From positions 96,001 through 160,000 of IMG/VR virus record IMGVR_UViG_3300031998_000008: DNA of 64,000 nt; one strand, written 5' to 3'. Position 1 is the stretch's first letter, and each line of letters starts with the position of its first letter. The notes beneath the pieces are model-generated. The model did no database searches, was not told where the DNA came from, and saw only the letters and a program-made list of their open reading frames with translations. Positions 10,127-18,047 of the stretch are shown piece after piece. Position numbers and translations under genes: made by a program. This stretch comes from a virus. Its lineage: Duplodnaviria; Caudoviricetes.

Positions 10127-11017
10127 ATGGCAAAAAGAGGAAGAAAACCAAAGGAAAGAAAAGGCTATTTTTATGATACAGAAGAGGCCGCTATAGTACA
10201 ATATATTAACGAAGACAACATATTAGAAAAAAACAAGATATTCAACACGATTCTATATCCTGCTTTGACAAAGATGATAGAATCCATAATCAGGAGATAC
10301 AAATTGTTTGTTCCTGATGAAGAGTTTGAACAGAATTTTAGTGATACAATATCATATTTGCTAACAAAAATTAACCATTTTAAGCCTGAAATTTATTGTT
10401 ATGACCCGTATAGTGGAGATACAGAAAACATTGAATTGGTTGAAGTTAGTGAAAGTGAATACAGAGAAAAGGTAAAATGTGCCGAAGAAACTGACCCTGA
10501 GTTCATTCATGTTGATTTTGAGGATGATGAAGAAAAGAATGGTAATTTCAAAAAGACACTTCACAAATATAAAGCATATTCTTATTGTGGTACGGTTTGT
10601 AGAAACTACCTAATGTATAAATGTTCTCAATACACAAAGAAAAAACTTAGAAATTCGTCATATGAAGATGTCTATGAGGATATTAATAATGATGAAAGAT
10701 TTTCAACATATGATGACAGTTTTGCAACCCATGCAGAGAATTTAATTAAAAATGTTTCTTCTGAAATAGAAAAAACAATTGAGGAAAGAGATTTGAATTC
10801 TTTAACTGATGATGAGGTTAAGGTTGGAAAGTCTCTTATAAATCTTTTGAGAAACTGGGAAGATGTTTTACCGAATGAGGGAAGCAAAAAATTACAGAAA
10901 TCTTCAATACTATATTATTTGAGGGAAGATACCATGATGACCACAAAGGCATTGAGGGATAACATGAAGAAATACAAGTGTATGTATCAATTCCTTAAAA
11001 AGAAAGAACTTGAATAG
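10127..11017 (+). CDS. Putative phage late-transcription sigma factor (T4 gp55-like)
   Basis: Sigma region-2-like segments: LTKMIESIIRRY, ISYLLTKINHFKPE ... KAYSYCGTVCRNYL. Confidence 0.55.
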   Translation: MAKRGRKPKERKGYFYDTEEAAIVQYINEDNILEKNKIFNTILYPALTKMIESIIRRYKLFVPDEEFEQNFSDTISYLLTKINHFKPEIYCYDPYSGDTENIELVEVSESEYREKVKCAEETDPEFIHVDFEDDEEKNGNFKKTLHKYKAYSYCGTVCRNYLMYKCSQYTKKKLRNSSYEDVYEDINNDERFSTYDDSFATHAENLIKNVSSEIEKTIEERDLNSLTDDEVKVGKSLINLLRNWEDVLPNEGSKKLQKSSILYYLREDTMMTTKALRDNMKKYKCMYQFLKKKELE

Positions 11018-15656: not shown

Positions 15657-15660
15657 AAGA

Positions 15661-15687
15661 AAAGGCCGCTTTAAAACGGCCTTTTTT
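15661..15687. terminator. Bidirectional terminator
   Basis: AAAGGCCG/CGGCCTTTTTT between convergent genes. Confidence 0.85.
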
Positions 15688-15688
15688 G

Positions 15689-17341
15689 TTATTCATAACG
15701 TTCAGTAACATCACTTACTATTTCAAACGATAACACATTTTCAAAGAATCGTGTTTCCCTACCATCACTTACCTTAATATCTATGTGATATTTGTGTGGT
15801 ATGAAGTCTTGTGTGTGTATTTTGAAGAAGTTATTCAAAAACCCCTTTTCTATCTTTGTATATGGGATAATTTCAATTTGTCTTGGGCCATCATATACAT
15901 ATATTCTGTATTCACAGCTTGAAATAAGCATTCTTTTGTCTGTTGAGTACTTTTCTCTAAAATCAACAACAACTTCACGTTCTTGGCCACGTTTAAGCCT
16001 TTCGTTGTCATTAATTCCGTATAAAGAAGGAACTAATGAGTTCTTTGAATATGAGTTTTCACCAATCATTAGTTTGTTTGATAATGGCTTTGTTGAAAAT
16101 TCCAATTCAACGTCATCGTTTTTAACGCCATTTAAAGCGATTTTAGACCATTTATCATAATAGATAGCACCAACTTCCATTTCAGATGTTAAATTGCCTA
16201 CAGAGGCACGATAAACGCCTTTTGTGACCTGTTTAACGTTAACTTCACTTCCGTTTATAGTGCATTTTGGGGTTTTGTCAAGGTTTGTTGGTGTTCCGTC
16301 ATCAAAAACATACAAATATAGGTTATTGTTTTTTCCGAGTGTGAATGATTCTCTATCATCCATGATATATTCGTCATAATTTGCTTCGATATACGGGTGG
16401 AAGAATGTATTTGTGTTATCAGTGAAGAATCCAACATAAAATTCTTGAATATAAGAACCTATTTTCTCTGTTTCTGGAACAAATGCAAGGCATAATCCGT
16501 AATTGTCAATGCATTTCTTCTCATAATCTTCAAGAGTTTCATCCATTTCGTCACGTAATTCATCCATGACATATTTTGTTATGTCAATTGAAAGGTTTTC
16601 ACTTCCGAAATCGAAATGTTGTGTGCCTATAATGATTGATTCTTCACCATTCAAATATTTTTCATATTCTTCTGCCAATGTTTCATTTGAATACACACCG
16701 CCATGTAATGCTTCGTTGTTTAATGAATATGAATCGGCCATTTCAATAAGGTCTTTCTTTGCCTTTTCCCAATCTTTATCATCTGAATAGTCGCTTGCTA
16801 TATTGTATATTTCCTGTGATATTTCATCTGACCTTTTTCTGTCATAATATCTTTTCTTTCTGATATTCAATGGTTTTGTATCAAGGTTAAATTTATCTTT
16901 TTCATATTTCCATGGGATAAATTTTTTTGAGAAGTACCAGTTTGAGCCATCTTCTGCATATGCAAGCCTGTTTTGGATGTAGAAATCGTTTTTATAGTCG
17001 AATCCACGTCCTGCATCAAAATCCATTGGCAATTTGAATAGCATTAAATCAAATGAAGATGCTCTTTCAAATTCAAAATCAGGTGAGATGTGTATTGGCT
17101 TGTCGTATGGAACTGTGTCAACTGAAAAACAATTTGTCATCTTGAGCGTGAAAGTTAATTTACTTGGGTCGGCAAACGTTTTGTCGTTTATCAAGTTTTT
17201 AATCTCTGAAATGTCAAAATGAAGCAAACCTCTCATCAAAAATTGTCCATACCCAACACCTAAAATTGGATTTAAACCCAAATTTTGGAGTGAATTTTCC
17301 AATATTGTATTAGTTTTGTCTAAGAAAAAATGTCTAATCAT
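15689..17341 (-). CDS. Putative virion structural protein
   Basis: 550 aa, beta-rich, late motif upstream. Confidence 0.6.
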   Translation of the reverse strand: MIRHFFLDKTNTILENSLQNLGLNPILGVGYGQFLMRGLLHFDISEIKNLINDKTFADPSKLTFTLKMTNCFSVDTVPYDKPIHISPDFEFERASSFDLMLFKLPMDFDAGRGFDYKNDFYIQNRLAYAEDGSNWYFSKKFIPWKYEKDKFNLDTKPLNIRKKRYYDRKRSDEISQEIYNIASDYSDDKDWEKAKKDLIEMADSYSLNNEALHGGVYSNETLAEEYEKYLNGEESIIIGTQHFDFGSENLSIDITKYVMDELRDEMDETLEDYEKKCIDNYGLCLAFVPETEKIGSYIQEFYVGFFTDNTNTFFHPYIEANYDEYIMDDRESFTLGKNNNLYLYVFDDGTPTNLDKTPKCTINGSEVNVKQVTKGVYRASVGNLTSEMEVGAIYYDKWSKIALNGVKNDDVELEFSTKPLSNKLMIGENSYSKNSLVPSLYGINDNERLKRGQEREVVVDFREKYSTDKRMLISSCEYRIYVYDGPRQIEIIPYTKIEKGFLNNFFKIHTQDFIPHKYHIDIKVSDGRETRFFENVLSFEIVSDVTERYE

Positions 17342-17361: not shown

Positions 17362-17370
17362 ATAAATAGT
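17362..17370 (-). promoter_or_regulatory. Putative late promoter motif
   Basis: ACTATTTAT on the minus strand, 20 nt before 17341. Confidence 0.7.
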
Positions 17371-17422: not shown

Positions 17423-17431
17423 ACTATTTAT
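17423..17431 (+). promoter_or_regulatory. Putative late promoter motif with no downstream CDS
   Basis: ACTATTTATA followed by about 115 nt of structured sequence and a terminator. Confidence 0.65.
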
Positions 17432-17434
17432 AGT

Positions 17435-17549
17435 AAAAGAAGATTGGGAAATATGTTAATGGATTGAAATACTGGCACTGCCCAAATCTCCTATGGAGGT
17501 CACAAGGTTAGCCATAAAAGGAGCCCATGCGCAGGACTCCTATTTTTTT
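17435..17549 (+). ncRNA. Candidate late-expressed structured small RNA
   Basis: Stems AGATTGGG/CCCAAATCT, TATGG/CCATA and AGGAG/CTCCT plus T7; locally GC-richer; no credible ORF. Confidence 0.5.
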
Positions 17550-17557
17550 CCACGGAT

Positions 17558-17585
17558 TTGACTTTTTTTTAAAAAATATTATATT
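17558..17585 (+). promoter_or_regulatory. Early/host-type promoter
   Basis: TTGACT-16 nt-TATATT upstream of 17601. Confidence 0.5.
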
Positions 17586-17600
17586 TTTTAAAAACTAAAA

Positions 17601-18047
17601 ATGAAGAAGATAAAAAGCGAATCCAAATTTCAAGACGAAAGTTTCAAAATTAAGATAGGGACCATGGATAAAAAGAATCCAGAGGTCATTTATATTGAAT
17701 TGGGGTCATACATATCTCCAATTGAAGAAAAGAAATCATACAAGCCTAATATTTCAAACATAGAAAGGGAAACAAAGTCGGTTGTTAGTGCGATTCTTCA
17801 AGAAAGCGGGTTATGTAAGAGTGATTTCATTTTTGTTTCCGATATAGCAGATGAACGAATTGCAAAGGATAAAAAATCATACTTGGAAATGCAATTGTTT
17901 GTCAAACCGTTAGATTCCGTCAGGGAATCCGGAAAGTTCTCAGAACTTAGCGAAAAATTCAATGAAGAGTGCGTTTCAAAGATAGTTCCATGTGTAAAAC
18001 AATACATTACAGAGAATGGCTTTGAATACTATAAATCAAGAAAGTAA
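17601..18047 (+). CDS. Hypothetical protein
   Basis: 148-aa ORF with its own promoter. Confidence 0.75.
   Translation: MKKIKSESKFQDESFKIKIGTMDKKNPEVIYIELGSYISPIEEKKSYKPNISNIERETKSVVSAILQESGLCKSDFIFVSDIADERIAKDKKSYLEMQLFVKPLDSVRESGKFSELSEKFNEECVSKIVPCVKQYITENGFEYYKSRK

Follow-up and report, generated by a model that had tools for sequence, protein, structure and literature searches.

A candidate free-standing small RNA gene behind a virion-gene-type promoter in a clade of huge T4-like phages

The locus and its promoters

The window, meaning the whole 64,000-nt stretch of DNA that was analysed, corresponds to bases 96001-160000 of a 207,929-bp IMG/VR virus record with a G+C content of 33% and an estimated completeness of 56%. 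A major capsid protein of the gp23 type is encoded in the record together with a portal protein and a large terminase, and the phage is therefore regarded as a huge T4-like phage; it is apparently virulent. Within the window, a 259-nt gap separates two divergent genes that encode proteins of 550 and 148 amino acids, and the unit described here (17423-17549) lies in this gap. The gene order is 550-aa gene (divergent), promoter, RNA, terminator, second promoter, 148-aa gene and 129-aa gene. The genes and promoters that frame the RNA are the following.

15689-17341, minus strand: 550-aa gene, the divergent neighbour, with its ATG at 17341
17362-17369, minus strand: CTATTTAT promoter motif of the 550-aa gene, 20 nt before that ATG and outside the RNA
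17423-17432, plus strand: structural-gene ('late-type') promoter motif ACTATTTATA, which would drive the RNA
17558-17585, plus strand: TTGACT-N16-TATATT promoter of the 148-aa gene, conserved with and without the RNA
17601-18047, plus strand: 148-aa gene, always the next gene after the RNA in the synteny comparison

All of the strings quoted in a preliminary description of this DNA were recovered at their positions by direct reading, including the perfect ACTATTTATA motif that it had found to be followed by no gene: behind the motif lie ~110 nt of non-coding sequence that end in a hairpin and T7. The description had also called this segment GC-richer and had listed very short ORFs only, and both observations held. 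The G+C content of the segment is 42-43%, compared to 33% for the genome, and none of the short ORFs is conserved among the homologues described below, across which no conserved ORF was found on either strand. The RNA is present as a single copy in its own genome.

We found 9 exact copies of ACTATTTATA in the window, where 0.40 would be expected, and 47 sites with the CTATTTAT core in the whole record. Most of these cores are followed, 14-23 nt after their 3' end, by an ATG on the same strand, and the genes concerned include the portal, terminase and capsid operons. As judged from orientation and placement, the CTATTTAT motif looks like a virion-gene promoter. The site at 17423 is an outlier in that the next ATG is 169 nt away. 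A CTATTTAT core precedes every RNA homologue read, at a variable spacing of 4 to 9 nt before the RNA, and ACTATTTAT is invariant among the eight closer homologues. We infer that transcription would start 0-7 nt upstream of 17441. The motif of the 550-aa gene has a counterpart in all relatives; in the window it stands back to back with that of the RNA, the two CTATTTAT motifs being 54 nt apart and pointing in opposite directions. Outside the window, CTATTTAT motifs whose distance to the next called start exceeds 100 nt occur at G000 10162 (+), 20267 (-), 22907 (-), 48591 (-) and 69996 (+). These distant sites may be intragenic, may precede small genes or may mark further orphan transcription units.

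A late promoter of the T4 type, which depends on gp55 and reads TATAAATA, was considered and rejected. The coding strand reads CTATTTAT, with TATAAATA present on the opposite strand only, and a search with T4 gp55 as the query detected no homologue in the 56%-complete record. The ORF at 10127-11017 showed no PHROG, Pfam or phage tblastn match and no BLASTP similarity to T4 gp55. 'Late-type' is used here for where the motif acts, namely before virion genes, and not for membership in the T4 promoter family. The preliminary description had proposed a dedicated late small RNA; a dedicated non-coding unit with its own predicted promoter and a terminator agrees with our findings, whereas 'late' reflects solely the fact that the motif precedes virion genes.

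The same description had assigned the next coding sequence a promoter of its own, and TTGACT-N16-TATATT is indeed found before the ATG at 17601. Promoters of the form TTGAC-N16-18-TAnAWT are not enriched in the genome (7 sites compared to 10.5 expected); despite this, the copy before the 148-aa gene is kept in every relative. A second gene-proximal copy, at G000 3219 (-) and outside the window, begins with the same TTGACTTTT, and TTGAC-type sites may represent a small special promoter class. The 148-aa protein itself had no Pfam or PHROG match. Its predicted structure is confident (pLDDT 93.7), and fold searches with this model returned generic alpha/beta matches only (best Z 7.8), with no RNA-binding fold among them. 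ESM Atlas look-ups for the 550-aa and 148-aa neighbours returned hypothetical viral proteins only.

Structure of the RNA

Structure was assessed with RNAalifold on MAFFT alignments and with pair counts on model-based alignments. Both approaches agree on one long irregular hairpin followed by a terminator, and alignments made with MAFFT only yield the same helices. The parts of the RNA are listed below, with all coordinates on the plus strand.

17441-17455, plus strand: conserved unpaired 5' segment AGAUUGGGAAAUAUG, the first 15 nt; AGAUU is invariant, and no consensus pairing is predicted
17456-17472, plus strand: variable A/U-rich linker, poorly conserved and of varying length in the alignments
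17473-17514, plus strand: long irregular hairpin made up of P2, P2a and P3
17473-76 with 17511-14, plus strand: P2, 4 of 5 pairs with compensatory changes, 87% paired
17480-82 with 17506-08, plus strand: P2a, GCC with GGU, invariant or changed from G-U to G-C, 99-100% paired
17486-91 with 17495-500, plus strand: P3, AUCUCC with GGAGGU, double changes in 4 of 6 pairs, 99-100% paired
17519-17549, plus strand: intrinsic terminator, AGGAG.CC/GG.CUCCU (17519-26 with 17534-41), 7-nt loop, UAU7

Overall, 93.9% of cells were paired and compensatory (double) changes were found in 14 of the 21 pairs. None of 500 column shuffles equalled the observed covariation, and slid controls gave 34-54% pairing. 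P2 in particular takes a different form in different lineages (UGGC/GCCA, UGAC/GUCA, CGGC/GCCG and GCAAC/GUUGC). The internal loops of the hairpin, ACU/UA and CAA/CACAA, are conserved and unpaired. Double changes affect 6 of the 7 pairs of the terminator stem, after which a run of at least 3-4 U follows in every homologue. An all-against-all screen of the columns revealed no further helix, and a pseudoknot between GGG (17446-48) and CCC (17481-83) was rejected, since its pairing is lost in the L006, L007 and L020 lineages. Elsewhere in the window, a strong two-way intrinsic terminator with an 11-bp stem lies at 15658-15687 between the convergent 331-aa and 550-aa genes, and hairpin-plus-U terminators are therefore in use by this phage.

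These results retain one of the three stems that had originally been drawn. The terminator (AGGAG at 17519-23, CTCCT at 17537-41, T7 at 17543-49) was correctly recognized and its stem covaries, while the first and second stems were not supported. The strands of the first, AGATTGGG at 17441-48 and CCCAAATCT at 17481-89, can pair in 90% of cells because both are conserved, yet 335 of 500 column shuffles did as well and covariation was absent. The AAUCU part of its 3' half serves as the 5' strand in the covarying P3, and its GGG/CCC half is the one broken in three lineages. A switch between alternative pairings of the 5' end and P3 is possible, albeit unsupported. The second stem, TATGG (17492-96) with CCATA (17512-16), pairs in only 47% of homologue cells. 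Finally, CTCCTAT does occur twice (17487 and 17537), as had been pointed out, whereas the alternative pairing that this duplication would allow is specific to the lineage of the window and is not conserved in the alignments.

We also considered whether the conserved stretch might act as DNA, for instance as an origin, as a binding region for a regulator, or as a signal for recombination or packaging. Its location between divergent promoters would suit such an element, as would the finding that the single window sequence folds no better than its shuffles (z = -0.70). A DNA element would not account for the compensatory changes that preserve base pairs, nor for the promoter upstream and the hairpin and T-run downstream that follow the direction of transcription in every member. 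Moreover, two G-U pairs are invariant. On the opposite strand these would read C-A, so that the plus strand is the functional one. We regard a DNA-level role as very improbable.

Nucleotide identity of the homologues to the window copy ranges from 50 to 96%, compared to protein identities of 33-45% for the 148-aa protein in more distant relatives and about 46-56% for the 550-aa protein. Thus, the non-coding stretch is conserved at least as strongly as its coding neighbors. It combines an intrinsic terminator, conserved structure and the lack of a conserved ORF, which are among the features expected of a free-standing sRNA gene. Taken together, comparative sequence analysis makes this RNA a solid candidate for a free-standing non-coding gene of about 105-115 nt in a clade of huge T4-like phages whose capsid is of the gp23 type, and we consider it highly probable that a real stand-alone RNA gene is present.

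Distribution and comparison with known RNAs

A search of IMG/VR with the 550-aa protein identified 18 related loci. The RNA was found at 11 of these by blastn and covariance model R1, always in the same place. Five further distinct RNA sequences came from a pattern scan of metagenomes, and a scan of species genomes added one more copy (L324:1891-2000; G006 contig C115), on a contig of 22.6 kb that had been assigned to the bin of an uncultured Bacteroidales MAG. This gives 16 distinct versions in total, 15 of them from related phage contigs and 1 from the MAG-binned contig. Judging by their sample ids, we take the related phage contigs to be from rumen samples. No copy was found in the 150 other Bacteroidales genomes searched, and a blastn search with the region returned nothing from 50,697 phage records. 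A first, loose DNA pattern produced chance hits only, none of which matched the model; a second also hit a 57-nt family in gut phage contigs, which is unrelated and was rejected by the covariance model.

In the 550-aa protein tree, the RNA-bearing genomes fall within a supported clade of 14 rows that contains two nested absences, and the outgroups are without the RNA. This distribution is consistent with a single gain and two losses. No copy of the RNA exists anywhere in the genomes of two relatives with a completeness rating of 100% (361 and 393 kb). In the L008/L009 lineage the RNA is absent and the 148-aa gene (L008:2499-2951 (+)) is inverted relative to all other relatives, so that a local rearrangement seems to have removed the RNA. 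In L010, L011, L016 and L017, which also are without the RNA, only two promoters separate the divergent genes, namely the 550-aa gene's own and the TTGAC...TATATT promoter of the 148-aa homologue. Since the 148-aa gene and its promoter are kept in RNA-less relatives, the two complete genomes among them, the RNA constitutes an accessory, self-contained unit rather than a required leader. The 550-aa gene no longer adjoins the RNA in the L004, L211 and L324 lineage, where the RNA stays beside the 148-aa gene. In L004, an inserted gene for a 600-aa ConA-like lectin (Laminin_G_3; L004:1157-2959 (+)) separates the RNA from the 550-aa gene, suggesting that the region houses receptor-binding or fibre-type late genes.

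The constant association with the 148-aa gene raises the alternative that the RNA is a cis-acting late leader or attenuator, in which transcription from the late promoter would extend to the 148-aa gene, with the RNA and its terminator setting the level of read-through. The RNA always immediately precedes this gene in the same orientation, it remains next to it despite the lectin-like insertion on its other side, and its conserved internal loops could form a ligand pocket. Like riboswitches and attenuators, it is a structured element with conserved internal loops, an intrinsic terminator and a downstream gene on the same strand. It differs from them in three respects that led us to reject membership in these classes: the terminator is followed by a separate conserved promoter before the gene begins, relatives retain the gene in the absence of the element, and no antiterminator pairing is conserved, the CUCCU duplication being restricted to one lineage. 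In addition, all members have retained a strong terminator, and riboswitch and leader families gave no match. A cis-acting leader is therefore improbable in our estimation.

Rfam 15 at gathering thresholds, with its families of riboswitches, ribozymes, sRNAs, tRNA-like RNAs and CRISPR repeats, gave no matches in the whole window. Under permissive settings, the best Rfam scores were 12-25 bits against thresholds of 37-229, with E values of at least 2.5. ARAGORN found no tRNA or tmRNA genes in the window. tRNA-like sequence occurs upstream of some called ORFs at G000 ~179.5 kb and 198.9 kb (e.g. GGGGAAGUGGUGGAACUGGUAGACACG), and a tRNA region of the phage seems to lie beyond the window. On these sequence comparisons, the RNA represents a new family of phage-encoded small RNA that matches no described family.

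The known RNAs nearest in kind are of two sorts. T4 species 1 and 2 (rnaC/rnaD) are likewise non-coding RNAs of a T4-type phage, 119-139 nt in length and with no function in the annotation. They are processed from tRNA precursor transcripts and lie in a tRNA cluster, in contrast to the RNA described here, which sits among structural genes with its own predicted promoter and a terminator. Covariance model R1, run with filters off on an 8-kb T4 region, gave a best score of 9.6 bits (E 1.2), and this hit was not at rnaC/rnaD. The second sort comprises RybB-type sRNAs and the prophage RNAs DicF and IsrK, with which the phage RNA shares a length of ~100 nt and the lack of an ORF, as well as a conserved 5' segment free of pairing, a stem-loop and a GC-rich terminator hairpin with a U tail; the promoter of its own is, for the phage RNA, a predicted one. 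Trans-acting sRNAs usually have this layout, in which a hairpin and a terminator with a U tail follow a conserved 5' end that is not paired. Nevertheless, the phage RNA has no sequence or Rfam relationship to RybB-type sRNAs, DicF or IsrK, and its internal loops are unusually conserved. The prophage sRNAs differ further in that the present RNA comes from a huge, apparently virulent phage and stands under a virion-gene promoter; the phage-derived sRNAs treated in the part of a review considered here (PMC12197685) are from temperate phages and prophages.

Possible modes of action

Based on this likeness in layout, the RNA is most likely a trans-acting late sRNA. We propose that it would be made late, together with virion genes, released as a discrete transcript, and act in trans, with the 5' segment AGAUUGGGAAAUAUG, and perhaps the CACAAGGUUA loop, pairing with a host RNA or with the RNA of an unsampled phage gene. 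The hairpin and terminator would provide stability or a handle for a protein. The 5' segment is likely to be a functional surface. The proposal in its entirety, a stand-alone trans-acting RNA gene that works by base-pairing, is put forward tentatively, at somewhat less than an even chance, and base-pairing taken as the working mode is at best equally tentative.

Searches for phage targets gave no signal above controls. Complementarity at the 237 translation starts of the genome reached at best -18.0 kcal/mol, compared to a mean of -18.9 for shuffled seeds. Among the 156 orthologue groups of three RNA-bearing genomes, the best combined p value was 2e-3, a figure equalled by 6 of 25 permuted seeds, and loose seed complements were no more common in RNA-bearing genomes than in RNA-less ones. 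An RNA target is therefore more likely to belong to the host or to the 44% of the phage genome that the record leaves unsampled.

The same results bear on a different proposal, in which a stand-alone RNA would bind a protein through its internal loops and 5' tail and serve as a decoy, a sponge or a component of an RNP. The partner could be of host or phage origin; defence sensors, RNases and translation factors are examples. As in protein-binding RNAs, covarying helices flank the unpaired bases with the highest conservation, CAA/CACAA and ACU/UA, and for these loops protein binding or a tertiary fold fits about as well as a seed. That the phage genomes yielded no RNA target also agrees with a protein partner, as does the accessory nature of the RNA, which is present in some relatives and absent from others in the manner often seen for anti-defence genes. 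Against this stand the absence of the repeated motifs expected of a sponge and the properties of the 148-aa neighbor, which lacks an RNA-binding fold and also occurs without the RNA. A sponge for RegA in particular, an idea that came from the AAUAUGUU-like tail, was rejected, as no PF01818 homologue was found in five related genomes. Overall, we judge protein binding to be less likely than not and somewhat behind base-pairing in trans, the mode we prefer.

Two further systems were discarded. A type III toxin-antitoxin pair is at odds with an RNA that is not repeated and with a 148-aa protein that also occurs without the RNA and has no ToxN-like fold. An RNA-guided nuclease, with the 550-aa neighbor as the protein, is at odds with the RNA being divergent from that gene and missing in many genomes that have the protein.

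To our knowledge, only a handful of small RNAs from virulent phages have been described, and comparative support exists for almost none of them. The RNA presented here is well defined, with a covariance model and a supported fold in hand, and would be suited as a new entry for RNA family databases. Its interest lies in the fact that, among these uncultured huge phages, a non-coding RNA is under stronger selection than its protein-coding neighbors; it is coupled to the virion-gene promoter and has been lost by some relatives. A more far-reaching reading is that of a late weapon directed at the host, such as a decoy or guide acting against a defence or RNA-surveillance factor, or an agent that reprograms translation, in hosts of the Bacteroidales type. 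The 5' tail and loop motifs would then mimic or pair with host RNA. We consider this reading quite unlikely; if true, the RNA would be the founding example of an RNA-level factor for counter-defence or takeover in virulent T4-like phages.

The leaders at CTATTTAT sites are mostly A-rich and poor in Shine-Dalgarno sequences, as gathered from a reading of the list rather than a count. Together with the MAG-binned copy, the A-rich leaders provide a weak hint of a Bacteroidales-type host. The Bacteroidales MAG, which is not a proven host, contains 66 loose seed-complement hits compared to 28 for the reversed control, which is at chance level. One site in this MAG (L330; G006 contig C48, 23004-23017, minus strand), likewise at chance level and no more than a lead, is complementary to the 5' segment of the RNA at 13 of 14 positions and lies ~10 codons downstream of the start of a P-loop ATPase gene (motif GANGAGKSN).
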